Positions 12,405 to 48,181 are shown, counted from the first letter of the stretch. The stretch is DNA of 64,000 bases from Candidatus Curtissbacteria bacterium RIFOXYA1_FULL_41_14 (GCA_001775095.1 MFCA01000025.1:22994-86993); one strand, 5' to 3'. Notes: generated by a model from the sequence alone, not told the origin. Numbers and translations are program-made.

Positions 12405-12502
12405 TCCTATTTATTTTAACACTCCGGGGGGGCTTAATTAATTTAATTCGAGCCTTCTTAGTGAAATAGCATTGAGAACTACAATGATTGAGCTTGTGGA
12501 CA

Positions 12503-13012: not shown

Positions 13013-13031
13013 TGATAAAACTCATTTTAAC

Positions 13032-21254: not shown

Positions 21255-24080
21255 CTAGCTGCATTTGCTCCAGCCGCAGGAGGGATTGATGCATTGACGG
21301 CAGCCTTCGGCAAAGACAACCGGGCTTGCGCAATCTGGGCAAACTACAAATTTATTTTCAATTATTTTTTCCTGATGAATGCTACTTACCGAACCGGTGT
21401 CGATTTGGTACTTACCCCCGACTGGGATATTCATCTGGGTACTTTTGGTGTTTCCCTTTGTTAAACCATTACCACTTCCTGTTTGACCGTTGGTATAAGC
21501 TGATTTGGCCGGGTAGTTTGTATGGCCGTTGGTTAAGGGAGTTTTTACAATGGATTCGATTGGTTCGTCTTGCCCAACTACTGGAAGGGTAAGTTGTTTG
21601 GCTTTGGCAATCTCCAATAAGGATTTACCGACGGCATCAAAGGCGGAAAGGACGCTGTCCGGTCCGATACCATAGGGCGTACCACAGGATATCCCGACTA
21701 GGTCTGTAGCAACCTCCTCCAAGCTCGCACCATATTTCAGGGCGCGGGATGCCAATCTGCCTGTAACTTCAGCGGCACCAGCCACATAACCGCCTGTTTT
21801 ACCGATAGTTACAAAAACCTCAACCGGCATACCTTCAGCATCCCGAAATACGGATGTATAAACATATCCAACATCAGCTTTCTTGCGAACTCTCATTCCC
21901 ACAGCTTCAGTTGGGGTCGACTTTTTTCTAGGAATTTGTGGTTGTGGTTCTTGGTAAATACGTTTACCGGTAAGCTGGTCATAATAAGAGTTATCTTTTT
22001 TAACCTCCAGGACTTGCTTAATTCTTGAACCGTCGCGATAAATTGTAGTCATGCGGCAACCAAGTTCGTATGTCAGCCAATAAGCTTGCCGGACATCTTC
22101 GACAGTCGCTTCATTTGGAAAATTGATTGTTTTGGAAATTCCGTTGTCAGTGTATTTCTGGAAAGCTGCTTCCATACGGATATGATCAGCAGGAGAAATA
22201 TCTTGGGCAACTACAAAAACCCTTGTCAGATCCTGAGGTATCTCACCTAAATTCTGAATTGAACCACGATTCTCTTCAATCTTGGAAAGTAATTGGTCGG
22301 AATCAATCCCCTTATTTTTCAAGGCCCCTAAAAAGTAGGAGTTAGTATTAAAAAGTCTTTTACCCTCGATGGTATTTTTGGCAAATGTCAGCGCAAAATA
22401 CGGTTCAATACCGCTGGAACAATCAGCAAGCAGGGAAATTGTGCCGGTTGGAGCGATAGTTGTTCTGGCAGCATTTCTTGGATGAATTTTACCTGGTTGG
22501 TTGTAGATAGAATCTTTGAAGGATGGAAATACCCCGCGAACCTTTGCTAGGTTCACACTGGCATTGTCTGCTTCATCTTGAATGAACTTCATGACTTTTT
22601 CTGCCAAGGAGAAAGCTTCAAAAGTGTTATAGCCAATACCAAGTTTGGCCAGCATATCTGCCCAGCCCATAACTCCAAGGCCGATTCTTCTGATTTTTGA
22701 GGTCATCTGGTCAATTTCCGCAACCGGATATTCGTTCATATCAAGAACGTTATCCAAAAAGTGAACTGCCTTGTGGATTGTTTGTTTTAACTCTTGCCAG
22801 TCGATTCTTTCTTCGACCGGTTCATCATATTGAGCGGAAGCCCTTCGACTTTGCTCAGGATCTTCGACCCTTCGACTTTGCTCAGGATCTTCGACCCTTC
22901 GACTTTGCTCAGTGTCTTCGACTTCGTCTTTAACGAACTTGGAGAGATTAACAGAGCCTAAAGTACAGGCATCATATGGGAGAAGCGGCTGTTCTGCACA
23001 GGGATTGGTAGCTTCGATTTGGCCAAGTTTTGGAGTTGGATTAGCCCGGGAATCGTTGATTCTATCAATTAAAACCACTCCCGGATCTCCGTACTGCCAG
23101 GCAAGTCTGGTTATTAAATCAAAGACTCTTTTGGCATTGAGTTTGTCAGTAACTTCACCGGTCCGAGGATTAACAAGGTTGTATCCTTCCCCTTTATGTT
23201 TAGCACGACAAGCTTCATATAACTTTCTAACTGCTTCTTCAACGCGAACATTTTTAAGATCAAGGTCGCGAATTGTGTATGCTTCTCTTATTTCTTCTAT
23301 AATCTCGTTAATTTCCAACTCGCCATCCGCACCTCGACTACGCTCGGTGTCTTCGACAAACTTGGCATCTTTTTTGACTTTTTCCATAAATTCCTCAGTT
23401 ATACTTATGGAGATATTAAAGTTAGTTAGCGAAAACTCATCGACTTTGTGAACTGCAAAACGCAAAATATCAGGGTGTGTATAGTGAAGGATTCCCATAT
23501 TAGCACCGCGGCGAACTCCACCCTGTCTTATTTGCGAAGTTACGTCGTTATAGGCTTGCAAAAAAGCAACTGGACCGGTTGATTTGCCCTTTGAGGTACC
23601 AATAATATCGTCTTTTGGACGGAGCTTGGAAAAAGAAAAGCCTGTCCCACCGCCCATTTTATGAATCATTGCCATATCCCGCATCGTTCTGAGAATTGAT
23701 TCCATATCATCCTCAATAGGTAAGACAAAACAAGCTGAAAGCGATTGGCCGGTTTTACCGGAGTTGACTAAAGTCGGAGTATTGGGAATAAATCTCTGGG
23801 AAGCCATAAGTTTGTAAAATTCTTTGGCTGTCTTTTTGTGGATATTGCCTTCGTAAATTCTGTCGGCAGCGGCAATATAGTAGGCAACACGCCAGAAAAG
23901 TTTTTTTGGAGTTTCTACCGGTTCCCCTTTCTCGTTACGGAAAGAGTAACGGGTTTGGGCAATATAGGCAGCATTTTCGGATAGAGTCGGTTCAAATAAA
24001 TCTTTCGGGACAGCCGGAATCTTTCTGCCTATTGCGCGAACATCTTCTCTTGTGAATTTCTTCTTTAACACTTTTTTCAT
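21255..24080 (-). CDS. nrdJ: Ribonucleoside-diphosphate/triphosphate reductase, class II (adenosylcobalamin-dependent)
   Basis: A 941-aa protein with the class II RNR fold signature and a C-terminal Cys-rich zinc ribbon (CPDCASP...CRQCINPSCGWSKCS). It overlaps nrdR by 4 nt. It contains in-frame repeat insertions, described in the next feature. Confidence 0.9.
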   Translation of the reverse strand: MKKVLKKKFTREDVRAIGRKIPAVPKDLFEPTLSENAAYIAQTRYSFRNEKGEPVETPKKLFWRVAYYIAAADRIYEGNIHKKTAKEFYKLMASQRFIPNTPTLVNSGKTGQSLSACFVLPIEDDMESILRTMRDMAMIHKMGGGTGFSFSKLRPKDDIIGTSKGKSTGPVAFLQAYNDVTSQIRQGGVRRGANMGILHYTHPDILRFAVHKVDEFSLTNFNISISITEEFMEKVKKDAKFVEDTERSRGADGELEINEIIEEIREAYTIRDLDLKNVRVEEAVRKLYEACRAKHKGEGYNLVNPRTGEVTDKLNAKRVFDLITRLAWQYGDPGVVLIDRINDSRANPTPKLGQIEATNPCAEQPLLPYDACTLGSVNLSKFVKDEVEDTEQSRRVEDPEQSRRVEDPEQSRRASAQYDEPVEERIDWQELKQTIHKAVHFLDNVLDMNEYPVAEIDQMTSKIRRIGLGVMGWADMLAKLGIGYNTFEAFSLAEKVMKFIQDEADNASVNLAKVRGVFPSFKDSIYNQPGKIHPRNAARTTIAPTGTISLLADCSSGIEPYFALTFAKNTIEGKRLFNTNSYFLGALKNKGIDSDQLLSKIEENRGSIQNLGEIPQDLTRVFVVAQDISPADHIRMEAAFQKYTDNGISKTINFPNEATVEDVRQAYWLTYELGCRMTTIYRDGSRIKQVLEVKKDNSYYDQLTGKRIYQEPQPQIPRKKSTPTEAVGMRVRKKADVGYVYTSVFRDAEGMPVEVFVTIGKTGGYVAGAAEVTGRLASRALKYGASLEEVATDLVGISCGTPYGIGPDSVLSAFDAVGKSLLEIAKAKQLTLPVVGQDEPIESIVKTPLTNGHTNYPAKSAYTNGQTGSGNGLTKGNTKSTQMNIPVGGKYQIDTGSVSSIHQEKIIENKFVVCPDCASPVVFAEGCRQCINPSCGWSKCS
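21256..21282. repeat. 27-bp direct repeat (right copy) equal to the authentic 3' end of the nrdJ CDS
   Basis: Pairs with 20744-20770 at 26 of 27 positions and brackets the DUF4258/DUF2283 cassette. Confidence 0.8.
22841..22921. repeat. Three tandem in-frame copies of a 27-nt unit (ccttcgactttgctcaggatcttcgac) within nrdJ
   Basis: Encodes ...VEDTEQSRRVEDPEQSRRVEDPEQSRR... A further single copy sits at about 23332-23357 (VEDTERSRG). The same unit is in gltX and in the palindromic elements. Confidence 0.85.
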
Positions 24081-29775: not shown

Positions 29776-30045
29776 CTAAAGCTTCTTTAGTAATTCCAAC
29801 TCCCCTTTTATCAAAGCCTCTTTTTTAGCTCTTGTCCATTTTTTTACTTGAAGCTCTCGGTTCATTGCAGATTTTATGTCTAGATACTTTTCTGTGTAAA
29901 CAATGCTTACTGGTGTTTTGCCTCGCAAATATTTTGCGCCTCTTGATGAATTTGAATTATGTTCTTTTAACCTTTTATCTATATCGGTCGTCATCCCACA
30001 ATAAAAGGAATTATCCGAACATCGAAGAATGTAAAAGTGGTACAT
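29776..30045 (-). CDS. GIY-YIG nuclease domain protein (UPF0213/YhbQ-like)
   Basis: MYHFYILRCSDNSFYCGMTTDIDKRLKEHN...GAKYL is the stand-alone GIY-YIG domain. It is 89 aa long. Confidence 0.8.
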   Translation of the reverse strand: MYHFYILRCSDNSFYCGMTTDIDKRLKEHNSNSSRGAKYLRGKTPVSIVYTEKYLDIKSAMNRELQVKKWTRAKKEALIKGELELLKKL

Positions 30046-30150: not shown

Positions 30151-30224
30151 TGGCTGCCGGACTAGGATTCGGACCTAGATAAGCAGATCCAGAATCTGCT
30201 GTCCTACCATTAGACGATCCGGCA
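30151..30224 (-). tRNA. tRNA-Gln (anticodon CUG)
   Basis: Hand-folded on the minus strand: acceptor TGCCGGA/TCCGGCA with U1-A72, discriminator G73, CCA encoded, D-stem GTCT/GGAC, anticodon arm GCAGA-TTCTGGA-TCTGC (CTG), T-arm CTAGG-TCCGAAT-CCTAG. The T-loop has C at position 55, which is unusual. Confidence 0.7.
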
Positions 30225-30317: not shown

Positions 30318-31190
30318 ATGATAAGAGGTCCTGAAGCTAGTGTTTATAAGGGTTTTGGCCCAGAAGATCAAGACATGTTCTCACGTACACTTCGTGAATG
30401 CGAGGCGACTTGGAATTGTACAGAGTTAAAGCCTGGAACGCTTGACGACATGCTTGTTTATCAGTTTGAATTAGCAATTGCTCAAGGTAGGAATGCAGTA
30501 AATGTTCTAGATCTGGGATGTGGCAGTGGTGCTGCAATCAAAAATATCATTAATGACTCAGCAGTACCAGAAAGACAACTGATACCTAAAAGCCGTGGGA
30601 TACTTACCAGTCATCCTAGCCTTACCCTTAGAGTTGTCGGTTTGACTGATGCAACTGACACACAGCAGTTTTTACAAAGAGAACCGATTGTACTTTCTGC
30701 TTACTCTACTCCGCCCCTAGTAAGCCAACAAGTTGAAGCCGAAATCGTTTACTATTCTATTACAGAAGCCCAAGGGCTCGGACAATTTACAGAAGCTGTA
30801 GGAATGCCAAAAGTAGACCTTATCATAGCGACGGGCTTTTTCTGTTACATCGAAGGCGATGATCAATTCAGACAAATACTCTCAGATGCAATCAGTGTAC
30901 TCAGAGCAAATGGGGGAAGATTATTAGCCTTCAAGTACGGTAATATTCCTGATAGAGAGTGGTCGGAAGAATATATCTCCAATGCCCTATGCCAGTTAAT
31001 GGCTTTTTCTGGAAAAGATCTATTGGAAGCGGGCGAAAGTGTATGGCAAGAAGCACGTGGCAAGATAGAATTGTCAACTAAGAGGAGAAATGAAATACTA
31101 GAACAGTTTGAGACCGATAAGGGATTATCTCTTCAATACAACAAGGATATTTTAATTGTTGATAGAGTAAGGTCAACTCCAGATCGATAG
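30318..31190 (+). CDS. Class I SAM-dependent methyltransferase-like protein
   Basis: Motif I 'VLDLGCGSGAA'. Its composition is noticeably more GC-rich and codon-distinct than its neighbours. Confidence 0.5.
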   Translation: MIRGPEASVYKGFGPEDQDMFSRTLRECEATWNCTELKPGTLDDMLVYQFELAIAQGRNAVNVLDLGCGSGAAIKNIINDSAVPERQLIPKSRGILTSHPSLTLRVVGLTDATDTQQFLQREPIVLSAYSTPPLVSQQVEAEIVYYSITEAQGLGQFTEAVGMPKVDLIIATGFFCYIEGDDQFRQILSDAISVLRANGGRLLAFKYGNIPDREWSEEYISNALCQLMAFSGKDLLEAGESVWQEARGKIELSTKRRNEILEQFETDKGLSLQYNKDILIVDRVRSTPDR

Positions 31191-31289
31191 ACGATTTTTA
31201 GACGATTTGCAAGTATTTTCTTAGTTCAAATTATTACTTCGTGCCTGTGGACGACGAGGATATAGTTAGAATCGCATTCCGCAAATTTT

Positions 31290-31434
31290 ATAAACTTCCG
31301 AGGGCTAAGAGCACTCGGTATTGTTCTTTAAGTTTACATGAGCGAGCAGATGTTTCCTCGGCTCGGAAGTATGTATTCGTTCTCACATTCATCCGTGGGC
31401 TAATAGTCCATGGTCTTCTGCGAACGAATATAAA
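31290..31434. repeat. Structured repeat family 2, copy A (about 145 nt)
   Basis: About 80% identical to 38156-38295. Shared blocks are ataaacttccgagggctaa, aagtttacatgag.gagcaga, aagtatgtattcg, cattcatccg and ctgcga.cgaatataaa. The hairpin ccgtgg...ccatgg corresponds to ccgagg...cctcgg in copy B with a compensatory change. Confidence 0.7.
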
Positions 31435-32278
31435 TTTCCTCGAAACCAAACAGTAACTCTTTCGCACCGTTTCTGTTAAACAACGCTATTGAATGCGACC
31501 AGGCACTAGGAAGATCTGGCCGATTCTTTAATCTCAACCTTGGTTCTATAGTAAAAGCCATCGGAGCTTCTATTTTAAAATCTTCAGCTTCGTTTACAAA
31601 TATCCTCTTTTTACTTATCAGCTGGCAAACCTTTCCCCATTCATTTTCTCCACCTTTCAACATATCTCTTTCATCACTAGTCCAGTCTTCATAAGTTGCA
31701 GGAATTGTGTGGCCAATATTGACACTTTGAGGATCACTTGTGCTTAGAATGTTGTTTGTAAAACCTCTACTTGTTATTAATTTGTTGGCAAATTTAGTAA
31801 CATCAGAAAATTGTTCGCCAACACGGACAAATTCAAAAATTTCTCTATTTATCTCGATACAAGTTTTTAAAGTTTTTATAACTTCTTTATTATTTCCTAA
31901 ATAAATCATTACTTCGGTATCTCCAATAATTCCTGATTCTTTGTCAACGGGAGAACCATAGAAAGCGAGAATACCATCTGTTTTATCTAAATAGACATCG
32001 TCCCTAGGCCATGTTTCTTCAAGCCTCATGTTGGGGTATAAAACTCTCTTTGGATTCTTAACAGTTGCAAACAGAACAATAAGCCCGTTAGGTGGAGGAA
32101 TATACCAGCCGTTTGGAAAAATCTTTGGGTTTTTTCTGAGTTCTCCCAGCCATAGGTCTCGAAATTCTTTTTCCGAAATCCTATTTTTCCTCAGAGATTT
32201 TCTTAACGCTTTAGCCAACGCATCGGTCGCTATTTTTCGAGTTTCTTTGCAAACTTGAAGTTTTTTATTAGGATCCAT
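31400..32278 (-). CDS. M24-like (creatinase/prolidase fold) domain protein
   Basis: C-terminal 'NIGHTIP...KIEAPMAFTIEPRL' resembles the M24 pita-bread motif. Its 3' end overlaps repeat copy A. Confidence 0.4.
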   Translation of the reverse strand: MDPNKKLQVCKETRKIATDALAKALRKSLRKNRISEKEFRDLWLGELRKNPKIFPNGWYIPPPNGLIVLFATVKNPKRVLYPNMRLEETWPRDDVYLDKTDGILAFYGSPVDKESGIIGDTEVMIYLGNNKEVIKTLKTCIEINREIFEFVRVGEQFSDVTKFANKLITSRGFTNNILSTSDPQSVNIGHTIPATYEDWTSDERDMLKGGENEWGKVCQLISKKRIFVNEAEDFKIEAPMAFTIEPRLRLKNRPDLPSAWSHSIALFNRNGAKELLFGFEEIYIRSQKTMDY

Positions 32279-32779
32279 AGGTTTATGATAGCAAATTGAA
32301 GCTAATTAGAGCTGGCACAGGCTAAAGTTCTGAATACTCTTTACTCCAACAATCTTTCTCAGGACCGTCCCAAATCACCCCTGGATATTTGGTAAGTTCA
32401 GCCCAATTCGCGGTTCGGAAATCATCAACTACTCCCAGCACGACTGTGCACCCATGTAACCGTACCCTCGACATTCACCCTTCAAATACCCCGATAATGA
32501 GGCTACGGTTGCAAAAGCGTCCTTGTTTTCACCTTGTTAACGATACACCCCCAACCATAGTCTTGGTTTCCAGTAAGGTTTTTAGGGTTAATAGAAATTT
32601 AATCTCGCCCGCTTAGTGAAGAATGTATGGTAGAGTCTAAGAAAGAGGTCTAAGCTACGTTAATTGAAGTACCAGACTATCTATCGATAAGTCAGAATTT
32701 TGCTCGTGAGTTATCACTTGCGTCACAAGGGGAAACTACGAGCGTACCATTTATAAAAAATCCACTTCCAGAATACCCA

Positions 32780-33799
32780 TTGGTTCAGTCAAATCAGGTA
32801 TTTCAAGCATTCGTTATCGGTGGAACGCATGGAGCCATGGTAGTTGTAAAACTCAATGAGGATAAGAAATTTGCAATTTTGAAGCAGAAAACATTCACCC
32901 CTCTTCCTAGGTTTGCTACTAAAGATGATTTTTTAGCATTCATTGAAGCCAATCTTGAACAGCAAACGGCTGCGATAGGAATCAATTTTGCGTACAATCT
33001 TATTCCTGTTGTCGGAGAAATGGGAGAACTTGATGGCATTATGAATCAAGGAGATACCAAAGGACACGCCTTTCAGGGACTGCAACAAGAACAAGTTGGA
33101 AAAACCATTGAGGATTACCTAAAAGAAACAACTAACAGAGATATTGCAGTGACAGTTGCAAATGACTCAGTATGTCTTATTACTTCTGGGCTAGAAGAAG
33201 ATACAGATAGAGAAAATCTTATAGCAGCTATTGCTGGAACGGGATATAACGTTGCGATATTTTTAGATAATAATACTGTCGTTAATCTTCAGGCTTCTGA
33301 CTTTACTGGATTTACACAAACTTCAACAGGAAAAGTGGTTGATTCGGAATCTAAAAATGCTGGTGAGCAGTTATTTAATAAAGAAGTTGCTGCTGGTGAT
33401 CTATATAAACACTACAATGTGCTTATTCCATTAATGCACTTGGCGACACCGCCCCTCCAATCGAGCGAAGAACTATCACGGTTAGCGCAAAAAGGAATTG
33501 GAGCAGAATCACAAGTTGCAAGGGAACTTTTTAAACGATCTGCCTCACTTATTGCTGCTCAATTAGCAGGTATATATGAATTCAAAGGTAGGCCTGTAAG
33601 ATTAACTTGTATTGTGCAAGGAAGTCTTTTCTTAAAAGAACCAGGCTACCTTTTAAACATACAGACTCAACTTGAAGCACTCGGAGTATCACAGAATGCC
33701 TTTGAATTTAAGAAAATAGAAAATAGCGATGTCTTGGGAATGATAAAGTTGATAACTGGAATAAATGCCTCGTTGATGGCAGAGGAGTTATTTATTTAA
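32780..33799 (+). CDS. ASKHA-superfamily sugar kinase (ROK/BadF/hexokinase-like)
   Basis: N-terminal 'FVIGGTHGAMVVVK', central 'VTVANDSVCL', and 'AAIAGTGYNVAIF' match phosphate-1, connect and phosphate-2 type motifs. Confidence 0.5.
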   Translation: MVQSNQVFQAFVIGGTHGAMVVVKLNEDKKFAILKQKTFTPLPRFATKDDFLAFIEANLEQQTAAIGINFAYNLIPVVGEMGELDGIMNQGDTKGHAFQGLQQEQVGKTIEDYLKETTNRDIAVTVANDSVCLITSGLEEDTDRENLIAAIAGTGYNVAIFLDNNTVVNLQASDFTGFTQTSTGKVVDSESKNAGEQLFNKEVAAGDLYKHYNVLIPLMHLATPPLQSSEELSRLAQKGIGAESQVARELFKRSASLIAAQLAGIYEFKGRPVRLTCIVQGSLFLKEPGYLLNIQTQLEALGVSQNAFEFKKIENSDVLGMIKLITGINASLMAEELFI

Positions 33800-33842
33800 G
33801 TCGCTATGTTAATGTAGTATTACTTAATTAAATTCTATTATA

Positions 33843-35039
33843 ATGCAGGATTTTAAAACAAAAGTTTACGAAATAATGCTTGCTAATAGGAGGCACAAAG
33901 GTAAGTATCAATACACACTCCCTTCACCTGACTCCTATCCTTATCAATGGCTTTGGGATTCCTGCTTTCATGCTATCATTCTCACCCACTACAACACCGG
34001 GGATGCTAAAAAAGAATTATTATCTCTCGTAGCCAAACAGTTTACCAACGGAATGATACCTCACATGAACTATTGGCAAGAACCTGAAAAAACGAATTTC
34101 CCTAAGATTGATTGGGGGAAAGAAGATAGTTCATCAATTACTCAGCCACCAATGCTTGCTTACGCAGTTTGGCAGATTTATCAAAAAGATCAAGACTTAG
34201 AGTTTTTATCTAACATATATGGTCATATAAAACGTTTTTATGATTACCTTTTAAAAGAGAGAGATCCGAGAGGACATCATCTAGTCAGCATTATCAACCC
34301 AGATGAATCTGGAGAGGATAACTCTCCTCGTTTTGATCTTCCTTTGAATCTACCGCCCAAACAAACAATTGAAGAAAATTATAAAAAAAGGCTTGAATTA
34401 ATTAGTAAGAATCATAAATGTAATTTTGATGCACCTTTTTGTATGAAAAACTTTTTTTGGGCTAAAGATGTACCATTCAACTCCATTTTAGTTGAAAATT
34501 TAAAGATCTTGTCATCTATAGCCGATAAATTAAACTTTGATGAAGAAAGTGAATATTATCATCATCAGGCATCGCTTATAAAGGAGGCGATGAGAAGTTT
34601 AATGCTTGAAGACGGAATTTTTTGGTCAACATATGGAAAGGATTATAAAAAAATTAAAGTTAAAACTTGGGCAATTTTTTCCCCTTTATTTGCTAAAGTT
34701 GCAACTGATTCGGAAGCGAAGAATTTAATTAAAAACTATTTTTTAAATCCAGATGAATTTTATCTACCTTTTATCCTTCCAACAACTTCAAAGTCTGACC
34801 CGGCTTTTGATCCAAAGGGATTCTGGCGTGGTCCAATTTGGATCTCAACGAACTGGATAGTTTTTAAAGGATTAAAAAATTATGGGTTTGAGGTGGAAGC
34901 TAAATATCTGCTTGATTGTTCTATCAAATTATTAGAAAAATCTGGCTTTAGGGAACAATATAATCCGCTTACCGGTGAAGGGTTTGGTGCGAGAAACTTT
35001 ACATGGGGTGGCCTAATTGCAGATATGTTAGAAAATTAA
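33843..35039 (+). CDS. Glycoside hydrolase, (alpha/alpha)6-barrel GH63/mannosylglycerate-hydrolase-like
   Basis: YQWLWDSCFHAII and WRGPIWISTNWIVFKGL are hallmark GH63/GH37-like motifs. Confidence 0.65.
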   Translation: MQDFKTKVYEIMLANRRHKGKYQYTLPSPDSYPYQWLWDSCFHAIILTHYNTGDAKKELLSLVAKQFTNGMIPHMNYWQEPEKTNFPKIDWGKEDSSSITQPPMLAYAVWQIYQKDQDLEFLSNIYGHIKRFYDYLLKERDPRGHHLVSIINPDESGEDNSPRFDLPLNLPPKQTIEENYKKRLELISKNHKCNFDAPFCMKNFFWAKDVPFNSILVENLKILSSIADKLNFDEESEYYHHQASLIKEAMRSLMLEDGIFWSTYGKDYKKIKVKTWAIFSPLFAKVATDSEAKNLIKNYFLNPDEFYLPFILPTTSKSDPAFDPKGFWRGPIWISTNWIVFKGLKNYGFEVEAKYLLDCSIKLLEKSGFREQYNPLTGEGFGARNFTWGGLIADMLEN

Positions 35040-35044
35040 GTTTG

Positions 35045-36115
35045 TTATTGACTTAAAATTTTGTTGTAGATCTGCTCATACCCGTCGACCATATTTTTGA
35101 CATTGAATTTATTCAAAACGTATTTCCTACAATACTCCCTGTCAATTTTTAAGATATTAGCGACTGCCTCTATCATCGAAGAAACATCTTCGACTATATA
35201 TCCTGATTTTCCATTTTCAATTACTTCTGGTATCGAACCTAAGTTAAATGCCACTACCGGAGTTCCGCAAGCCATCGATTCGATGAGTGTTAACCCAAAC
35301 GGTTCTGGCCAAGTAACAGGATGTAAAGAACACATCGCCTCACTCATTAACTTATTTCTTTCTGTTTCATTAACTTCACCAACCCATTTGATTTGGTCAG
35401 ATAATTTGGGTTCAACAAATTGTTTGAAATACGAAACATCGTGAGGAGCATCTACTGCACTATCTAATTTGGCTGCAATTATCAAGGGGATGTCTAAATA
35501 TTGAGCAACCTCAATCGCAAAATGTACCCCTTTTTCCATGGATATCCTTCCTGTGAAAAGTAAATATTTACCCGGCTTTTTCGAAAATGGAAAATGTTTC
35601 ATCTCTAAACCATGGTAGACATTCCCCATAAATTTTAAATTGGGAGCGGAAGCCGCTTGAGCTTTTGAAACAGGAACCAGGTATGGGTTTTTTAAATTTT
35701 CAAAGATTCTTTTTTCATTTACACCAAAATACCCGTGTATAGTCATTACTACGGGAGTTTTGGAAAAGTTAGCTGTTGGTAAGCTTAGATAACCGTTATG
35801 ATCATGGATTATGTTAAATTGATCTTGTCTTTGATAAGCATAACCTATATTTAGCAGGGATAGGATATTCGCACCATATACATTATCCAAAACCCTGGAA
35901 TAACGCAGCGCCTTTGGATAAATCGAAATGAGTTTAGCAGAAGTAATAGAATCACCACTAGCAAACAGAGTAACCTCATGACCTCTTTTAACTAACTCCT
36001 CAGTCAGCGCATAAACAACTCTTTCTGTTCCTCCATATTTTTGTGGCGGAACTCTTTCTGCAATATTTGCTAACTGCGCTATTCTTAATCTTCTTTTTGC
36101 CATACTACTTGCCAT
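35045..36115 (-). CDS. Glycosyltransferase family 4 (GT-B)
   Basis: EPFGLTLIESMACGTPVVAFNLGSIPEVIENGKSGYIV is the GT4 E-X7-E region. Confidence 0.8.
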   Translation of the reverse strand: MASSMAKRRLRIAQLANIAERVPPQKYGGTERVVYALTEELVKRGHEVTLFASGDSITSAKLISIYPKALRYSRVLDNVYGANILSLLNIGYAYQRQDQFNIIHDHNGYLSLPTANFSKTPVVMTIHGYFGVNEKRIFENLKNPYLVPVSKAQAASAPNLKFMGNVYHGLEMKHFPFSKKPGKYLLFTGRISMEKGVHFAIEVAQYLDIPLIIAAKLDSAVDAPHDVSYFKQFVEPKLSDQIKWVGEVNETERNKLMSEAMCSLHPVTWPEPFGLTLIESMACGTPVVAFNLGSIPEVIENGKSGYIVEDVSSMIEAVANILKIDREYCRKYVLNKFNVKNMVDGYEQIYNKILSQ

Positions 36116-36533
36116 TCCTAAATCATTTTACACTTCATATAATGATTATGTTTTTGCGAAGCAAAAGGCAAGACTTCGACGATGAGCTCAGTCGAATCGC
36201 TTCTGCGAATACGAAGTATAATTTAACATTAATTAAGAAATTTGATCTAATCAAAAAATATTTTCAAAGTTAAACAGACATATTACTTAATCTGCTAATT
36301 ACGAAGCTAAGCATATCTGGGAGTACTCTTAAGGTCAAATTTTCTTATGCTAAAGTAGCTTATTAGAAACTGATGCTAGTTGGATCTACTGAATAGCGAA
36401 GCTAGGGAGAGAATCGCAACGCGGCAATCGCCTGAGACTATAACCCTAGGCACCGCATCCGACTATAATGACGGAATGGGTCTTGACCGACACGCTCAGC
36501 TTTTTTCCCAGCAGGAAGTAAAGGTCGCTTTGG

Positions 36534-37763
36534 TTACTTAGTGAAATAGTGTTTAATTAAATTCCAAAGATCCGGATAGTCTTTGTCATATCCTAGGGTC
36601 CAGATAGCAATCCCTCCTAAATTATGTGTTTTTGCAAAATCAAACTTTATTTCAATTGATTTATTATCTTCTAACCAAACCTCTCTTTGAATTTTGTTTA
36701 AATCTGTGTAAGCACACCAGGTTGCTTTGGCCGTATCATCCCATTGACAGTTTTGGGGCTTCAGGTCTGTGTTTGTTCTGGCTCTCCCGTAAGAAATAAC
36801 CTCAGGATACCCATTTTCGTCATTTTGAGGAAGAACCTTACTTAGGGCGACAGTATTGTCTTCAACCGGATAATCCCAACCATAATAAGGAACTCCCATA
36901 ATCAATTTTTCTTTTGGCACCACTTTCTGGAAATCGTTGTAGGTGGTCTTAACATCGAAGAAGTAACTTGTTTGGTCGGCAGAAGGGTTGGCAATATAGC
37001 CAAAGATGGGGGCTACCGGACCGGCAAGGTCAGAAGAGCCTGAGTAGTAATCATAAGACATAACAATTACTTTATCGAAAAGCGGCGCCAGGGAAGCTAC
37101 ATCATTAAGCCTGGGTTTTTCGACAGATAAAGGGAAAAAATCTATGCTCAGCTCTGTTTTAGGAGATTGGGTTCTAAAAGTTGAGGTCAGCTCTTTAGCA
37201 AAATTGGTAAACTCGGATTGGTATTTATCATCCGGCTCTCCATCATATTCAAAATCAAGATTTAGTCCATCGATTTTATTTGACTTTACAATCTGGATCA
37301 GGTTACTGATAAGAGTCTTTTGAGCCGAAGGGTTATCAAGAAAGCTTTCCAAAGTTTTATTCTTTTGCATGGCAATAGTTAAACCAAATTTTGCCCCTGT
37401 GATTTGAGTTTTAGCAATTAAATTTTGGATTGTGGGAGAGCTCCACCACCTCCAGCCGGGATCAGTTTCATTGTTAACTATTTTAATAATTTGCCCATTC
37501 TCATCGACGCTTAAGCTGAAAAAGAAAACCTCTGATAAAAGATCAAAGTGCAGATATTTTGAATTATCTAAATTCCAATAGGGTAAAAATCCGACTACAT
37601 CTTTTTGCATCTTCGCATGAGAGTGACCTAAATTAGAAAGTATGTATTGTCCGGAAACTAAAGGAGAGACAGTAGGATAACGGAAGTGAAGATATAAGCC
37701 TATGCCAGTAAAAATCAAAAAGAGAGCAGGAAAAATATAAAAAAAGGCTTTTTTATCCACCAT
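36534..37763 (-). CDS. Glycoside hydrolase family 18 (chitinase-like), membrane-anchored
   Basis: N-terminal TM helix. The DGLNLDFEY catalytic motif (DxxDxDxE) is present. Confidence 0.75.
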   Translation of the reverse strand: MVDKKAFFYIFPALFLIFTGIGLYLHFRYPTVSPLVSGQYILSNLGHSHAKMQKDVVGFLPYWNLDNSKYLHFDLLSEVFFFSLSVDENGQIIKIVNNETDPGWRWWSSPTIQNLIAKTQITGAKFGLTIAMQKNKTLESFLDNPSAQKTLISNLIQIVKSNKIDGLNLDFEYDGEPDDKYQSEFTNFAKELTSTFRTQSPKTELSIDFFPLSVEKPRLNDVASLAPLFDKVIVMSYDYYSGSSDLAGPVAPIFGYIANPSADQTSYFFDVKTTYNDFQKVVPKEKLIMGVPYYGWDYPVEDNTVALSKVLPQNDENGYPEVISYGRARTNTDLKPQNCQWDDTAKATWCAYTDLNKIQREVWLEDNKSIEIKFDFAKTHNLGGIAIWTLGYDKDYPDLWNLIKHYFTK

Positions 37764-37765
37764 TT

Positions 37766-38110
37766 TTAGTAACCTACATCCTTGTAAAACCTAAGCTGGT
37801 TGTTAAGTTCCCTGTTGAATGAATTTATAAAGCTTGTGGTTAGCCAAATTGTTAATAAAATTGAAATTATGGTTAGAAAAATCGCGGCAAGTCCAATTTT
37901 TTTTGATTTTTCATCCTGTTGTCTTAAATAACGAACGGCAGGCCAAAGTCCAAAAGGCGGAAGAAAAAAACTTATAACATAAACTGTCAACTGCCGTGAG
38001 AAGGTTGTGGACGGGGGTTTATCTTTTAGCTTCTTCCCGCACTGGTGGCAAAAATATTCTGTTGGTAAAATATTCTTATTACAGTTGGGACAAGTTAGTT
38101 GTAATTCCAT
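37766..38110 (-). CDS. Zinc-ribbon plus TM small protein
   Basis: CPNCNKNI...CHQCGKK followed by two TM helices. It is 114 aa long. Confidence 0.45.
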   Translation of the reverse strand: MELQLTCPNCNKNILPTEYFCHQCGKKLKDKPPSTTFSRQLTVYVISFFLPPFGLWPAVRYLRQQDEKSKKIGLAAIFLTIISILLTIWLTTSFINSFNRELNNQLRFYKDVGY

Positions 38111-38155
38111 ATCATGTCAATATTACTACATTTCTTGATATGTATAATGAAATCA

Positions 38156-38295
38156 ATAAACTTCCGAGGGCTAAAAGCCCTCGGTATTTGCTCTTCAAGT
38201 TTACATGAGAGAGCAGAATACCCTCGGAAGTATGTATTCGCTTTCGCATTCATCCGAGGATTAATAATCCTCGGTATTCTGCGAGCGAATATAAA
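38156..38295. repeat. Structured repeat family 2, copy B (about 140 nt), immediately 5' of the 38307 gene
   Basis: See copy A. It contains five ccgagg/cctcgg hexamers in alternating orientation, able to form mutually exclusive hairpins. It ends 11 nt before the ATG at 38307. Confidence 0.7.
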
Positions 38296-38306
38296 ATCTA
38301 CTTGAC

Positions 38307-39863
38307 ATGAGCTATCTTGCTTCCCGAAAAAAAGTTTTGGCGCTTTTGTTGATTTTAGTGGTGTTTTATGTCTTTCAATTAAAATATTTACAGAAGAGCA
38401 TTTTTAACATTCAATTTGTAGATGAGGACGACAATTTTGTAACAGGTGCTTGGATACTACGGGGCCAAAAATTATATAAGGACATATTTTTTCAGCATCA
38501 GCCAACTGCAACATATATCAGTGCCACAGTACAAGAAATAACAAAGCCAAATAGTATCTTTCTTTTGGTTAAGCGTCATCGGGAGTTAATTTATCTTTAT
38601 TCTGCTGCCGCTTTTTTCTTCTTAACTCTAAGGTTTGGTTTTGCGGGCTTTGCGACAGCAGTACTATACGAGACAACTAAGTTCTATTTTTTGGGTAATT
38701 TATTTTTGGCTGAGACTCTCGTAATACCGCCGCTATTATTCGTGACCGGACTCATTCACGAAACAGTTTTCAAAAGAGAAAAATTATCCAGTAGACTTAA
38801 TTTGGCGGTAGCATTAATTTCGATAATCTTTATTCAATGGACCCTGTTACCCTTGGCTCCATTTGCAATAATATCTTTTGCCATTATTTGGTATTTATCT
38901 TCAAAACATTTGAGGAGTTTCTTTCTGAAATTCATAGGTATTTATATCCTACTTTTATCTTTCATTTTTCTTAAGTTATTCCCCATTTCTGGTTACCTCA
39001 AAGACACCGTATTTATAACTTCAACTCAAAATATTCCGGCAGAAGTTGGTCATCTGGGTATCTTTATTGCAAGATTTTTCTTTTATCCTTTATTTGCCAT
39101 TGATTTTCAAAACAGCGGATTTTTCCTTACATTTAAAGTTTTATCTATCTTCTTTGTAATTTCGCTTCTATTTCTTGTAAAAAGAAAGTGTAACCTTCTT
39201 GCTTTTCTTTCTGTTTTACTTTTTTGGCTTACAAATTTGCGGCCGGCCCCTTTTGGTCTTTTCTACAGCGGATTTCATTTGTTGCCAATGTATGTCGCCC
39301 TTCTCTGGCTCACCGTTTTAAATGCTAATTTTATAATTTTAAAATCAAATGGGAAAATTTCTAAAATATTAATTTCAAGTATTTTCTTTGGGACTTTAAT
39401 TTCGCTTTCTGCGATTTCGTACAAAAAAGAAATCACCACCACATTTGACAGGGAAAGTATTTTTTACACAAACTATTCACCCAGATTTGATTATGGAGAA
39501 GCTGTAAAACTTCTTTCTGAACCTCAGGATAAATTGATAGTCGGCTCCAGTGAGTCATTAATCTATTGGCAAAGCAAATTACTTCCTAGTTCGCCATTTT
39601 TCTATACTTACGCGTTTATGTATAAAAGTGATGCCTTGAAAAAGGAGGTAGGTGATAATTTTTCTAAAAGTTTACCAAAATTTTTCTATATTAATGGGGA
39701 TTTCGAGAATGACGCTATATATAGCAGTCAAGCAAACTATTACTCAAATGTGCTGCTTCGCGATAAACCTTCCAGACTTTATGTTTTAAAAAGCAAGTTA
39801 AAAGATATAACAGATGATAAATGGGAGGAAGTAAAAAGGTTAGGGTTTACTAAAAAGAAATAA
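38307..39863 (+). CDS. Polytopic membrane protein, putative GT-C-fold glycosyltransferase
   Basis: A 518-aa protein with more than 10 TM helices and an early acidic loop motif (FVDEDDNFVTGAW), reminiscent of PMT/ArnT-type enzymes. Confidence 0.4.
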   Translation: MSYLASRKKVLALLLILVVFYVFQLKYLQKSIFNIQFVDEDDNFVTGAWILRGQKLYKDIFFQHQPTATYISATVQEITKPNSIFLLVKRHRELIYLYSAAAFFFLTLRFGFAGFATAVLYETTKFYFLGNLFLAETLVIPPLLFVTGLIHETVFKREKLSSRLNLAVALISIIFIQWTLLPLAPFAIISFAIIWYLSSKHLRSFFLKFIGIYILLLSFIFLKLFPISGYLKDTVFITSTQNIPAEVGHLGIFIARFFFYPLFAIDFQNSGFFLTFKVLSIFFVISLLFLVKRKCNLLAFLSVLLFWLTNLRPAPFGLFYSGFHLLPMYVALLWLTVLNANFIILKSNGKISKILISSIFFGTLISLSAISYKKEITTTFDRESIFYTNYSPRFDYGEAVKLLSEPQDKLIVGSSESLIYWQSKLLPSSPFFYTYAFMYKSDALKKEVGDNFSKSLPKFFYINGDFENDAIYSSQANYYSNVLLRDKPSRLYVLKSKLKDITDDKWEEVKRLGFTKKK

Positions 39864-41736: not shown

Positions 41737-42036
41737 TCAGGGAGTGAATTTGATTTCCAGATGAGAATTAAGGGCTTGAGCTAATTTTTTAAGGAAACCA
41801 ATGGAAGGATTAGCCCTGCCCGATTCGAGTCTCGAAATAACTGATTGTTTTGTACCAAGTTTTTTAGCTAGTTCTTCTTGTGAAATGCCATTCATACTTC
41901 TTGCTCTGACAATAGCTCTAATTACTGCGAATTCCGGCTGTTGACGGTCGTACTCCGCTTTTAATTCAGGATCTTTTAAAACTTGCTTTTTCCAAGTATT
42001 AAAATCCAAATGTTTTCTGTCTTTAGGTTGAATCAT
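41737..42036 (-). CDS. XRE-family HTH antitoxin (HigA-like)
   Basis: C-terminal HTH 'ISQEELAKKLGTKQSVISRLESG'. It lies immediately downstream of the RelE/HigB-like gene. Confidence 0.75.
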   Translation of the reverse strand: MIQPKDRKHLDFNTWKKQVLKDPELKAEYDRQQPEFAVIRAIVRARSMNGISQEELAKKLGTKQSVISRLESGRANPSIGFLKKLAQALNSHLEIKFTP

Positions 42037-42060
42037 ATTATAAGGATTATAGCATATATG

Positions 42061-42390
42061 CTATACTAATTCTCCCATCCTGTCAAGTGCGGTTTTCAAT
42101 TCTTTTGCTGGTGTTTTTTGAGACTTCTTTTTAAAAGCATGCAAAAGGTAATATTCCCCGTTTTTGATTGTATAAAAGATTCTAACTGCTACTTTCCCCG
42201 AAATCCGCAACTCATACAATTTATTTTTGACTTTTTTAATATAAGGTGGTTTCAGGTAAGGACCATCGGTTTCCAAAAGTTCAATAGCACCTATGAGCTT
42301 AGCATATGTCGGTTTATTCTGTTCGATCATAAAATCTTGAACAGGATAATTGCCTCTTGTGATTTGGAAGAATTTAACTTTCCATGCCAT
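42061..42390 (-). CDS. RelE/ParE-superfamily toxin, Gp49/HigB-like (DUF891)
   Basis: A 109-aa protein. The MAWKVKFF...YLLHAFKKKSQKTP pattern is typical of HigB/Gp49-like toxins, with a toxin-first arrangement. Confidence 0.65.
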   Translation of the reverse strand: MAWKVKFFQITRGNYPVQDFMIEQNKPTYAKLIGAIELLETDGPYLKPPYIKKVKNKLYELRISGKVAVRIFYTIKNGEYYLLHAFKKKSQKTPAKELKTALDRMGELV

Positions 42391-42419
42391 GACTTTAGTC
42401 TAGCAAAAAACAAGTTATC

Positions 42420-43682: not shown

Positions 43683-43790
43683 GTCATTCTGGCCCTTCGG
43701 TCTTGAGCTCAGGGTCGAAAGGCTTGTCCAGAATCCATATCTTGATTAGATTCTGGAGTCGTCGAGTCAGACTCGACTCCCCAGAATGAC
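43683..43790. repeat. Full-length copy (108 nt) of the palindromic structured element in the dxr 5' region
   Basis: gtcattctgg-[cccttcggtcttgagctcagggtcgaaaggctt]-gtccagaatcc-atatcttgatta-gattctggagtc-gtcgagtcagactcgac-tccccagaatgac. It has nested inverted repeats and a -10-like tataat about 25 nt upstream. Confidence 0.8.
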
Positions 43791-46863: not shown

Positions 46864-48181
46864 AATTTTTAAGTCTGGTAATCGTCTCCTCTTGACCAAG
46901 TTGTTCCATAGATTCGTAAAGAGGAGGGGTAATTATACTACCTGAGACAATATTTCTGACAGCAGAAATTAACTCTATCCTGTCGATTTTTTTAAGGACA
47001 GCTGTTTCCTCGATTAATTTCCTGATGACAGAATTATTCCAAACCTTACTTTTTTCAAAAACTGAGATTACATCAGCAATCAATGAAACAGACAGTGATA
47101 TTTTGGGAATATTTGAAATTTTCGGGCGGTTGAAAAAGAAGTCCGCCATTTTTGGGAATTCCAACAATGTTTTCATCCGTTCCCTGACAAGTGGTATTAA
47201 AGATCTGATTTTTTCAAGATCATATTGGGGAAAAAGGGTTTTAATCTGTTTGGCAAGTCTGTCGTCTTTGATCTTTTTCATCCACTCCCGATTAAACCAA
47301 TTTAATTTTTCGCCGTTGAAGATCGGGCTGTTTTTGTTAAGGCGATCAAGCGAAAATTCGCGAGTTAAATCATTTAGAGAAAATATTTCTCTATCGTCTT
47401 TGGGCGCCCAACCAAGAAGGCTCAAAAAGTTAACTAGAGCTTCGGGCAGATAACCTTCATCTATATATTCGATAACTGATTTTGCACCTTCGCGCTTTGA
47501 AAGCTTTTTACGATCAGGTCCCAGGATTGGCGGCAGATGAATAAAAGCAGGATATAGCCACGAAAAGGCCTCGTACAAAAGAAGATGTTTTGGAGTTGAT
47601 GATATCCATTCGTCCCCGCGGATGACGTGGGAGATTTGCATATCGTGATCATCAACAACAGAGGCAAAGTGATACGTCGGGAAACCGTCGGATTTTACTA
47701 TGATAAAGTCTTCGAGTACATCGGATAAAAACTTAATTTCGCCATGAACCAAATCTTGCCATTTTAGGGTTTTTCCTTTTGGAATTTTGAAGCGCCAAGA
47801 TCCTTGGTCTTCATAAACCAGCTTCTGGTCTTTTAGAATTTTCAGGTGTTTCTGGTAAAGATCCAGTCTTCTGGACTGCTCGTAATACTCATCCCATTTC
47901 AAACCAAGAACCGAGAGGCTTTCTTGAATTATTTCTCGAGAGCCTGGAACTAGTCTTTTACGATCGGTGTCCTCAAGCCTGAGTATGAAGGTGCCATCCT
48001 GATTTTTTGCATACAAAAAATCAAAAAGGGCTGTTCTTATATTGCCGATATGAGGAACTCCAGTTGGCGACGGGGCATATCGAACACGGACCCTTCGACT
48101 ACGCTCAGGGTCTTCGACCTTTCGACTACGCTCAGGGTCTTCGACCTTTCGACTACGCTGCGGGTCTTCGGTCTTTTTCAT
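46847..48181 (-). CDS. gltX: Glutamyl-tRNA synthetase with an N-terminal repeat-encoded extension
   Basis: RVRYAPSPTGVPHIGNIRTA (HIGH) and KLSKREG (KMSKS). The first 30 residues, MKKTEDPQRSRKVEDPERSRKVEDPERSRR, are encoded by the 27-nt tandem repeat. There is no alternative start downstream of the repeat. Confidence 0.85.
   Translation of the reverse strand: MKKTEDPQRSRKVEDPERSRKVEDPERSRRVRVRYAPSPTGVPHIGNIRTALFDFLYAKNQDGTFILRLEDTDRKRLVPGSREIIQESLSVLGLKWDEYYEQSRRLDLYQKHLKILKDQKLVYEDQGSWRFKIPKGKTLKWQDLVHGEIKFLSDVLEDFIIVKSDGFPTYHFASVVDDHDMQISHVIRGDEWISSTPKHLLLYEAFSWLYPAFIHLPPILGPDRKKLSKREGAKSVIEYIDEGYLPEALVNFLSLLGWAPKDDREIFSLNDLTREFSLDRLNKNSPIFNGEKLNWFNREWMKKIKDDRLAKQIKTLFPQYDLEKIRSLIPLVRERMKTLLEFPKMADFFFNRPKISNIPKISLSVSLIADVISVFEKSKVWNNSVIRKLIEETAVLKKIDRIELISAVRNIVSGSIITPPLYESMEQLGQEETITRLKNYVKKK
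48092..48172. repeat. Three tandem in-frame copies of the 27-nt unit (ccttcgactacgctcagggtcttcgac) at the 5' end of gltX
   Basis: It is the same unit as in nrdJ with 2-3 substitutions, and it encodes VEDPERSRK repeats. Confidence 0.85.

Follow-up and report, generated by a model that had tools for sequence, protein, structure and literature searches.

The window, by which we mean the whole 64,000-nt stretch of DNA analysed from Candidatus Curtissbacteria bacterium RIFOXYA1_FULL_41_14, contains two copies of a short structured repeat between positions 31,290 and 38,295. Copy A lies at the 3' end of an M24-peptidase-like gene and copy B directly upstream of a gene for a 518-aa membrane protein. 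The features at these two places are:

31266-31289, minus strand: orphaned original 3' end of the peptidase gene (KICGMRF codons and stop), severed by the insertion
31290-31434, plus strand: copy A, 145 nt including the ATAAA target pentamer
31290-31294, plus strand: ATAAA target pentamer at the left junction of copy A; uninterrupted TTTATAAA in an orthologue
31295-31434, plus strand: inserted DNA of copy A, 140 nt, CTTCC...GAATATAAA, partly decayed, recognised by CM score
31298-31318, plus strand: hairpin 1 of copy A, CCGAGGGCT..AGCACTCGG, one mismatch against the family hairpin
31393-31413, plus strand: hairpin 2 of copy A, CCGTGGGCT AAT AGTCCATGG, containing two G-T pairs
31400-32278, minus strand: M24-peptidase-like ORF (Pfam Peptidase_M24, C-terminal alignment, translation)
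38143-38148, plus strand: TATAAT, -10-like box, conserved upstream of orthologues L162, L158 and L160
38156-38295, plus strand: copy B, 140 nt including the ATAAA target pentamer
38156-38160, plus strand: ATAAA target pentamer at the left junction of copy B; orthologues have TTAAA/ATAAA, then directly atcta..ATG
38160-38169, plus strand: 5' strand of long-range helix P1, ACTTCCGAGG, predicted by folding, overlapping the 5' strand of hairpin 1
38161-38295, plus strand: inserted DNA of copy B, 135 nt, well preserved, missing from orthologous loci
38164-38184, plus strand: hairpin 1 of copy B, CCGAGGGCT AAA AGCCCTCGG, terminator-like on both strands
38184-38221, plus strand: domain 1 middle arm of copy B, with conserved loop AAGTTTACATGAG at 38197-38209
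38222-38231, plus strand: 3' strand of P1, CCTCGGAAGT, from the fold of copy B
38233-38293, plus strand: domain 2 of copy B, basal stem TATTCGC../..GCGAATA with hairpin 2 at its tip
38254-38274, plus strand: hairpin 2 of copy B, CCGAGGATT AAT AATCCTCGG, at the tip of domain 2
38307-39863, plus strand: 518-aa membrane-protein gene, starting 11 nt after the end of copy B

Both copies lie on the same strand and are 84% identical over the element in pairwise comparison, close to the 80% given by the initial annotation, and this identity stops exactly at the element ends. Their CM scores are 142.5 bits (copy A) and 154.8 bits (copy B). Measured against dinucleotide shuffles, RNA folding gave z-scores of -5.1 for copy A and -10.7 for copy B (-8.2 for the minus strand of copy B), and DNA folding gave -4.7 and -3.3 for the plus and minus strands of copy A and -10.2 and -9.3 for those of copy B. 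The five CCGAGG/CCTCGG hexamers originally ascribed to each copy are all exact in copy B (order + - - + -), whereas copy A has two exact and three decayed; across the window such hexamers occur at chance frequency (16 observed, 16.7 expected), with 7 of the 16 falling within the two copies. The compensatory T-A to A-T swap described for one stem is present, as CCGTGG..CCATGG in copy A and CCGAGG..CCTCGG in copy B.

Copy A had been placed between convergent genes, which is not simply the case: it sits within the 3' end of the peptidase ORF, the last 35 nt of which are element sequence encoding its present last nine residues (IRSQKTMDY) and stop. Excision of exactly the inserted bases returns the conserved end of the ORF, the reconstructed gene reading ..GFEEIYKICGMRF* where homologues end ..EEIYKICGM.., and the orthologue in L155 is uninterrupted; judged from these alignments, copy A has substituted for the last seven codons of the gene. 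Copy B ends, as first noted, 11 nt before the ATG at 38307 and is located between this codon and the TATAAT box. Orthologues of the 518-aa gene (86%, 77% and 67% identity), the product of which has no Pfam match, have the same TATAAT...ATG upstream sequence without the element, and family-wide the element has no sense or upstream preference, which argues against the suggestion that copy B is the leader or attenuator of what had been called a glycosyltransferase-like gene. Because copy B, by position, makes up nearly the whole 5' UTR, a side effect on expression of this gene is plausible: through the insertion its leader would have become long and very stable and have acquired a terminator-like hairpin. 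The element's role in the window is that of a passenger, with side effects in that both copies have altered host genes.

Copies A and B are members of a previously undescribed family of small, gene-less mobile elements in Curtissbacteria and related Microgenomates. Far from there being just two copies, our search returned 147 CM matches at about 101 distinct sites, nearly all in Candidatus Curtissbacteria and other Microgenomates assemblies (candidate phyla radiation; groundwater). A genome scan specifying the P1 strands alone yielded 22 extra copies, all with ATAAA at the left end, and a metagenome scan found 110 further stretches, the terminal invariance of which is partly built in because that scan demanded terminal motifs. 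The elements measure 123-165 nt, contain no conserved reading frame and have sharp ends in all copies (ATAAAC...GAAWATAAA); flanks at different sites are unrelated, and an identical 148-nt copy was found again at an unrelated site. Most loci hold a single copy, with the element alone as the inserted DNA, and copies standing head to tail have one ATAAA in common (L076, L006). No described Rfam family matches, either at gathering scores over the whole window or at E up to 10 over 31000-38500, searches of phages, plasmids and viral contigs gave no match to the element, and we found no literature report of such elements (PATE type) in candidate-phyla-radiation bacteria.

The additional copies brought the covariation that the initial annotation had looked to, with double (compensatory) changes at 24 of 32 base pairs and 95.7% of pair cells paired, against 83.9% in shuffles and 33-51% with partners slid. 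These changes between lineages uphold a two-domain fold, in which domain 1 is a three-way junction closed by the long-range helix P1 (9-11 bp, retained across subfamilies), a competitor of hairpin 1, and domain 2 consists of a long stem bearing hairpin 2 at its tip. Compensatory changes occur in six of the seven pairs of hairpin 1 and also uphold the stem of hairpin 2, a position that holds at least eight unrelated stem sequences across the family; subfamily 2 has a different middle arm in domain 1. The 5' CCGAGG strand is able to pair with either downstream CCTCGG, and the three strands co-vary, from CCGAGG/CCTCGG/CCTCGG to CTCCAGC/GCTGGAG/GCTGGAG; since co-variation across the family retains both pairings, the earlier remark that mutually exclusive hairpins can form holds. 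Clean stems have decayed equally by G-T and C-A (54 versus 53), and we therefore infer that no one strand is maintained as RNA in individual copies. The G-T wobbles in domain 2's basal stem speak for the plus strand as the one that folds, but the geometry of the ends speaks for the minus strand.

Five comparisons of filled with empty sites prove that the element is mobile. The L110 site is filled and its counterparts in L101 and L049 are empty, with flanks 93.5% identical and a junction that reads ..TATAAA[148 nt]ttaag in the former and ..TATAAAttaag in the latter two; L093 carries two insertions, neither of which is present in the orthologous contig L143; and the remaining comparisons are those of copies A and B with their orthologues. 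Together with the roughly 101 unrelated sites and the identical copies at different loci, these comparisons strongly support the earlier suggestion of a MITE.

Insertion is precise beside ATAAA (TTTAT on the other strand) and always in one orientation, as the five empty sites agree, and ATAAA precedes 24 of 24 copies found without requiring the motif. Beyond the pentamer, a preference for Y-T at positions -2 and -1 is all that the left flank shows, and the targets have just 5-7 nt or so in common. The base preceding the right-hand ATAAA is constant within a subfamily (T or A), whereas the one preceding the left-hand pentamer varies, so the right-hand pentamer behaves as element sequence; because the element ends in its target pentamer, insertion with no duplication and with a strict 5-bp ATAAA duplication would give the same sequence. 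Terminal inverted repeats are absent, the first 20 nt matching the reverse complement of the last 20 at 8.7 of 20 positions, against 7.4 for shuffled arms. Hairpins 1 and 2 instead form a direct repeat (family D2) in a common WTC-[stem]-GTNTT context, with feet reading TTC/C.. and ..G/GTATT, and the layout of the minus strand is TTTAT / 16 nt - hairpin ... hairpin - 3 nt - TTTAT /. Relative to neighbouring genes, 33 sites are antisense, 18 sense, 11 divergent and 9 convergent, and across all sites no gene family is found repeatedly at one position beside the element. With gene orientation as a proxy for replication direction, there is a weak bias (p of about 0.05 and 0.17) toward the minus strand as the active one, in co-directional gene pairs (33 versus 18) and loci (51 versus 37), and 58.5% of nearby coding bases are on the strand expected if the minus strand were active.

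The one-orientation ATAAA and the two direct hairpins point to single-strand transposition by a Y1/HUH transposase, and we favour, with a probability of roughly 0.6, a mobile family of non-autonomous or parasitic, single-strand IS200/IS605- or RAYT-type origin. The element would be a derivative of, or a parasite on, a 'peel-and-paste' transposon of either type: the two subterminal direct hairpins would be recognised by a tyrosine transposase of the Y1 (HUH) class acting in trans, which would cut beside the pentamer at each element end, and the element would be released as a single-stranded circle that re-inserts on the 3' side of a further such pentamer. For IS200/IS605 elements, insertion takes place downstream of a pentamer, TTTAT for example, without target duplication; their transposition depends on left-end and right-end stem-loops, and gene-less 'PATE' derivatives exist (PMC10055086). 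RAYT-like proteins scoring above the Pfam Y1_Tnp cut-off are encoded in element-bearing contigs (L093, L101, L110, L113); their best NCBIfam match is REP_Tyr_transpos, below its cut-off, and they have more than 6,349 homologues, the organism-named ones mostly from Curtissbacteria or Levybacteria. A transposase gene flanked by the element's own ends was not found in the loci and contigs searched, which are parts of genomes: the flanks of nine Y1 gene copies (L093/L143, L101, L110, L113, L144/L145, the second copy of L145, L150 and L151) have other short palindromes or nothing recognisable, and no element lies within 4 kb of four further Y1 loci (58 kb covered). Because no Y1 gene has matching ends, we can only infer the transposing enzyme. 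The two hairpins within one copy also often have unrelated stems.

Movement by a different enzyme, which we consider a good deal less probable, would involve either a site-specific recombinase (tyrosine or serine) with ATAAA as its crossover core or a DDE transposase making a strict 5-bp ATAAA duplication, with the hairpins in another role, for example as terminators or protein-binding sites. Such core exchange or duplication would leave ATAAA on both sides of every insertion, as is seen, and would accord with the lack of a Y1 gene with matching ends. However, the absence of terminal inverted repeats and the asymmetric, one-orientation motif are unlike the outcome of a two-fold symmetric DDE transposase, the few nucleotides common to targets are too short for the arm-binding sites of a site-specific recombinase, and the right-hand ATAAA behaves as part of the element.

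A bolder form of the Y1 reading, which we regard as improbable, would make the element a long-lived partner of the abundant Microgenomates RAYT-like Y1 transposases and not just a decaying passenger, with hairpins that are swapped as modules matching different resident enzymes and a conserved pair of mutually exclusive helices that switches conformation. This switch would control single-strand excision or, in a transcript, serve as a terminator/antiterminator or as the guide-RNA scaffold of a TnpB-like nuclease. If true, the relationship would be a symbiosis like that of REPINs but with a new architecture, in bacteria whose genomes are very small.

We think it very unlikely that the family is above all a functional structured RNA, be it a riboregulator, an attenuator or a small RNA gene, whose copies serve the host. 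The strong conserved fold, its pair of mutually exclusive helices, its terminator-like hairpin, the conserved loop sequences and the position of copy B within a 5' UTR are consistent with such a role, yet the copies are tied to no gene family or position, occur in all four orientations with antisense the commoner, are missing upstream of orthologues, can insert into coding sequence, as copy A did, and decay equally by G-T and C-A in clean stems, and no Rfam family matches even at the most permissive threshold. The initial annotation's novel structured RNA thus survives in its structure, covariation and lack of an Rfam match, and its riboregulator role does not, given the mixed orientations and the orthologues without the element; a cis-regulatory leader or riboswitch-like RNA was rejected, there being no conserved sense position upstream of homologous genes. 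Equally hard to credit is a gene-less IS200/IS605 derivative whose right-end fold is a guide RNA (omega RNA) scaffold for a TnpB/IscB-type nuclease encoded elsewhere: gene-less PATEs often encode such RNAs, the TnpB of ISGst2 uses TTTAT, the element's pentamer read on the minus strand (PMC10055086), and a complex conserved fold adjoins one element end, but 0.9 Mb of element-bearing loci contain no TnpB-like ORF by a crude zinc-ribbon filter, Rfam gives no match, and the apical hairpins are freely exchanged between copies.

Like the element, classical bacterial MITEs and Rickettsia palindromic elements are 100-160 nt long, multi-copy, structured and mostly intergenic; both can change the expression of neighbouring genes, and Rickettsia palindromic elements, like copy A, can be taken up into a reading frame. 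Classical MITEs (Correia/NEMIS, RUP, ERIC, BOX) are bounded by terminal inverted repeats and by short symmetric duplications, TA for instance. We rejected a MITE of this TIR type, as the element has no terminal inverted repeats and its flanking motif is asymmetric with a fixed orientation. Integron attC sites form same-orientation arrays that separate gene cassettes and have RYYYAAC/GTTRRRY cores; this identity was rejected as well, on mostly single copies, insertions of the element only, and ends that by inspection are off the core consensus.

REPINs and REPs (RAYT) are, like the element, short, hairpin-forming, non-coding repeats that are mostly intergenic, with copies common to related species and RAYT-like Y1 genes in the same contigs. 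Whereas a REPIN consists of two inverted REPs in one long hairpin, the element has two direct hairpins in a 140-nt two-domain fold, and the palindromes flanking RAYT-like genes (L093/L143, L101, L110, L113, L144, L151) differ from its hairpins. REP palindromes carry, according to PMC3733652, a conserved tag (GTAG or CGTC) on one side, and neither tag is present at the feet of the element hairpins. On these three counts a REPIN or REP-RAYT system was set aside.

PATEs and IS200/IS605 elements (IS608, ISDra2, ISGst), like the family described here, have no inverted terminal repeats. PATEs share with it like-oriented subterminal hairpins at the two ends, insertion in a specific orientation beside a 5-nt motif (TTTAT being a known one in IS200/IS605), precise boundaries, small size and the lack of an ORF, and Y1 transposase genes are present in the element's host lineage. 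Its minus-strand layout resembles that of IS608, the left and right hairpins of which are near-identical, whereas the two hairpins of the element may be unrelated in sequence. Unlike PATEs, the element has no cognate tnpA/tnpB found with matching ends, has an additional long-range helix in competition with hairpin 1 as well as a conserved middle arm, repeats the target pentamer at its own end, and resides in bacteria of the candidate phyla radiation.

The two window copies, A (31290-31434) and B (38156-38295), are 140-145 nt long, lie on the same strand and are 84% identical, with their similarity running exactly from a left-hand ATAAAC to a right-hand ATATAAA; a covariance-model search found no third copy within the 64-kb window, whose Candidatus Curtissbacteria assembly originates from the Rifle aquifer. 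Against dinucleotide shuffles, RNA folds scored z = -5.1 for copy A and -10.7 for copy B, the opposite strand of copy B scored -8.2, and DNA-parameter folds gave -4.7/-3.3 (copy A) and -10.2/-9.3 (copy B). The five CCGAGG/CCTCGG hexamers first ascribed to each copy are all exact in copy B; copy A holds two exact and three decayed ones. The T-A to A-T swap between the copies, located in hairpin 2, is real.

The initial annotation had proposed searching genomes and metagenomes for further copies and comparing the element with Rfam. A covariance model trained on 23 copies brought the total to at least 147 copies of 123-165 nt, at about 101 or more distinct sites once copies with common flanks were merged, and no Rfam family matched the element, either at gathering scores across the whole window or at E up to 10 across 31000-38500. 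A scan of the genome collection with a pattern specifying only both strands of the long-range helix added 22 copies at 21 loci; every copy from this helix-only scan carried the left end ATAAACTTCC and 22 of 24 the right end ATAAA, though the pattern required neither end, and the flanks beyond these ends were unrelated among the scanned copies. A three-block pattern recovered at least 110 stretches from metagenomes, groundwater and sediment predominating. The scan loci lie almost throughout in Curtissbacteria, Microgenomates or Patescibacteria assemblies; the element occurs in many lineages of Curtissbacteria and Microgenomates across several aquifers, and one assembly (MFBV, GCA_001776505.1) contains at least nine copies. 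Three element-bearing loci (L002, L004 and L007; L numbers are handles of contigs or loci retrieved from these collections) come from assemblies labelled 'uncultured Gammaproteobacteria', a label or binning that may be wrong because the distribution is otherwise strictly Microgenomates. Neither viral contigs, scanned with two patterns, nor phage or plasmid records gave a match.

In domain 1 of the element a long-range helix, ACTTCCGAGG paired with CCTCGGAAGT, encloses hairpin 1 (CCGAGG-NNN-loop-NNN-CCTCGG) together with a middle arm; the loop of this arm, AAGTTTACATGAG, is kept in two subfamilies out of three. In domain 2, hairpin 2 sits at the tip of a long stem (TATTCGC.../...GCGAATA). Taken with their feet, the two hairpins are direct repeats of each other (family D2). 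Among 101 distinct sequences, standard pairs fill 95.7% of pair cells, against 83.9% after column shuffles and 33-51% with partners slid, and double changes occur at 24 of 32 pairs; the alignment was fitted to the model, which somewhat inflates these figures, and raw sequences show the same pattern. The mutually exclusive hairpins described initially prove to be conserved family-wide: in subfamily 3, CCGAGG, CCTCGG and CCTCGG change jointly to CTCCAGC, GCTGGAG and GCTGGAG, so that the 5' strand keeps a choice between the near strand, giving hairpin 1, and the far strand, giving the long helix. This helix spans 9-11 bp in most copies, compared with 5-6 bp when its strands are taken from different subfamilies.

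At least eight mutually unrelated stems form hairpin 2, among them CCGTGGACT, CCGTCGAGTC, CCCCGCC (16-nt loop), CCCCGAT, CTTCGAC and CCTCAGC, constantly bracketed by CATC and GTNTT. Since differing versions are found within one genome and across subfamily backbones, the hairpins behave as exchangeable modules. Extra GC-rich hairpins or inserts of 15-25 nt were also seen in the middle arm or linker of some copies (L006 4314-4465, L049 1370-1534, L011 6147-6311, L097 4178-4337). A protein-coding reading is dismissed: six-frame translation of 23 copies revealed no conserved reading frame, and copy lengths are not divisible by three. Mismatches in clean stems are equally divided (53 C-A, 54 G-T), as neutral decay of individual copies predicts, and wobble pairs are thus uninformative about the folding strand; a G-T excess is confined to a few columns and may reflect lineage effects.

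Five filled-versus-empty comparisons (L110, copy A, copy B and two in L093) are evidence of mobility. L110 is filled (...TATAAA[CTTCC...GAATATAAA]ttaag) where L101 and L049, with flanks 93.5% identical, are uninterrupted (...TATAAAttaag); its 148-nt copy has a base-for-base twin at an unrelated site in L049/L101, and we therefore conclude that transposition was recent. L093 carries two copies, one full and the other a 64-nt version with an internal deletion (556-619, without domain 2, yet precisely inserted), and the orthologous L143 has neither. Copies cluster in places, as in L049, and stand head to tail with a single common ATAAA in L076 and L006. Strain-level contigs of the window organism offered no empty sites, both copies being present in all 11 loci examined, and L005 and L006 were unusable as an empty and filled pair because an assembly gap abuts the element. 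Runs of N lie directly beside or inside copies at L006 4261-4313 and L019 2310-2322; evidently, short-read assembly of these genomes breaks at the repeat.

Copy A interrupts an M24-peptidase-like ORF (31400-32278, minus strand) that now ends ...GFEEIYIRSQKTMDY, where homologues at 56-76% identity end ...EEIYKICGM.... With 31295-31434 deleted in silico, the ORF continues into 31266-31289 and its end becomes ...GFEEIYKICGMRF followed by a stop, and an orthologue in L155 (74% identical) reads GAAATTTATAAAATT uninterrupted; copy A thus inserted eight codons ahead of the stop and took the place of the protein's tail, altering nine C-terminal residues.

Copy B separates the start codon (ATG, 38307) of a 518-aa membrane-protein gene from a conserved -10-like box at 38143-38148, and had been suggested as a possible cis-regulatory leader or attenuator. 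A transcript from that putative promoter would carry the whole of copy B as its leader, and hairpin 1 is predicted to be terminator-like on both strands. Orthologues at 86%, 77% and 67% identity read ...tgTATAATaaaatcaTTAAAatctagttga...ATG or close variants upstream without any element, and the window reproduces their sequence with 135 nt inserted after ATAAA, a comparison that counts against the leader reading.

Sites are mainly intergenic, often a few bases from a gene end, and no gene family is found repeatedly in one position relative to the element. Both neighbours are antisense to the element, as oriented in the initial annotation, in 33 cases and sense in 18, with 11 divergent and 9 convergent arrangements; the same orthologous gene is followed by the element in one species and preceded by it in another. 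Numerous sites fall within cell-envelope and glycosylation gene clusters. The recurrent neighbours (glycosyltransferases, membrane GT-C-like proteins, pilins, epimerases) were considered as transposases and rejected; they instead mark variable envelope regions. Fusions of two helix-turn-helix domains of transposase type (HTH_28 and HTH_Tnp_1) to a membrane family-2 glycosyltransferase recur near several copies (L126 1-1550, L049 2258-4510, L143 6188-8669 and others; ORF cluster 0). The repeat first noted is real and non-random, and it represents a mobile element family rather than a gene-specific riboregulator; we place the probability that the element is mobile DNA at about 0.95 or higher. 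Strong covariation and proximity to a start codon are insufficient on their own to indicate a riboregulator.

Several other features of the window were recorded. A small GIY-YIG-annotated, homing-endonuclease-like ORF (29776-30045, minus strand), called as 89 or 50 aa in different strain-level contigs, sits beside a tRNA (30154-30224, minus strand). Adjoining small genes at about 41737-42400 (minus strand; L022 6431-7084), one with an HTH_3 and one with a Gp49 domain, look like a HigB/HigA-type toxin-antitoxin pair. Upstream of a GH18 gene (about 35045-36533), strain-level contigs differ in gene content (L024 53-1216 versus L022/L023 1-809): L024 has a TspO/MBR gene and another ORF, and the window and other contigs a family-4 glycosyltransferase.

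Candidate-phyla-radiation genomes measure about 1 Mb, and the element family was recently active in them. It remodels genes, having rewritten one protein's C-terminus and put a large structured leader into another gene, and for annotation it accounts for spurious ORFs, apparent gene fusions and assembly gaps at its sites. The literature searched contained no report of miniature mobile elements in these bacteria. The family provides a clean, covariation-rich substrate for studying DNA-shape recognition by Y1 transposases, and it bears on whether the numerous RAYT-like genes of these bacteria are active.

Searches for an IS608-type TnpA (tblastn, phmmer) gave no significant match, and weak HUH-region matches led to RAYT-like genes, of which element-bearing contigs hold four intact and one frameshifted. 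The loci recorded are as follows.

RAYT-like Y1 (HUH) genes, 205-225 aa, by contig
L093, 776-1444: RAYT-like gene
L101, 356-973: RAYT-like gene
L101, about 12472-13112: RAYT-like gene, frameshifted
L110, 704-1366: RAYT-like gene
L113, 213-884: RAYT-like gene
L144, 4001-4645: RAYT-like gene

Their proteins score above the cut-off for Pfam Y1_Tnp, with NCBIfam REP_Tyr_transpos the best match there, below its cut-off; the family numbers over 6,349 members, predominantly from Curtissbacteria or Levybacteria (Microgenomates groups) where an organism is named. As autonomous partners these genes were rejected: they have short palindromes of their own at their borders, unlike the element's ends and hairpins, and no element lay near four further RAYT loci. 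The half element beside the RAYT gene in L093 is an independent insertion, since the orthologous L143 lacks it. A crude zinc-ribbon filter found no TnpB-like ORFs. In one genome a RAYT-like gene lies between rplK and nusG, and on another contig CCCTTCGACTTTGCTCAGGG stands directly upstream of one. That sequence resembles the motif of a separate repeat family in the window (22839-22922, 48089-48172, 18929-18968, 43686-43739, 1-25, 19191-19216; also L101, about 1130-1165), whose units include GACCCTTCGACTTTGCTCAGGATCTTC, arranged as tandem pairs of 27 nt, and ..CCCTTCGGTCTTGAACTCAGGGTCGAAAGACTTGTCCAGAATCC.., and which is probably the first repeat family of the initial annotation.

Because the element ends in the pentamer beside which it inserts, duplication of strictly 5 bp, or recombination at a core site, may also fit the sequence. 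The flanking motif is asymmetric and in a single orientation relative to the element, which has no terminal inverted repeat, and both features favour an asymmetric mechanism over a DDE transposase, which would be symmetric; an integron attC and a terminal-inverted-repeat MITE were both rejected on architecture. We infer that the IS200/IS605 family is the best fit: its members transpose in single-stranded form and need a stem-loop at the left end and another at the right. They integrate downstream of a pentamer, TTTAT for instance, with no target duplication, and gene-less derivatives arise from them (PMC10055086). On the minus strand of the element the first hairpin comes 16 nt after TTTAT | and the second ends 3 nt before the closing TTTAT |, and gene orientation shows a weak bias (33 versus 18 pairs; 58.5% of coding bases nearby) that agrees in direction with this layout. 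A Y1 enzyme would move such a hairpin-dependent element as a single strand, and we incline modestly towards this HUH mechanism; the copies are best regarded as a new family of gene-less, hairpin-dependent elements of candidate-phyla-radiation bacteria that are probably mobilised by Y1. Among known systems, their minus-strand spacing of 16 and 3 nt is close to that of IS608, in which the corresponding distances are 19 and 10 nt.
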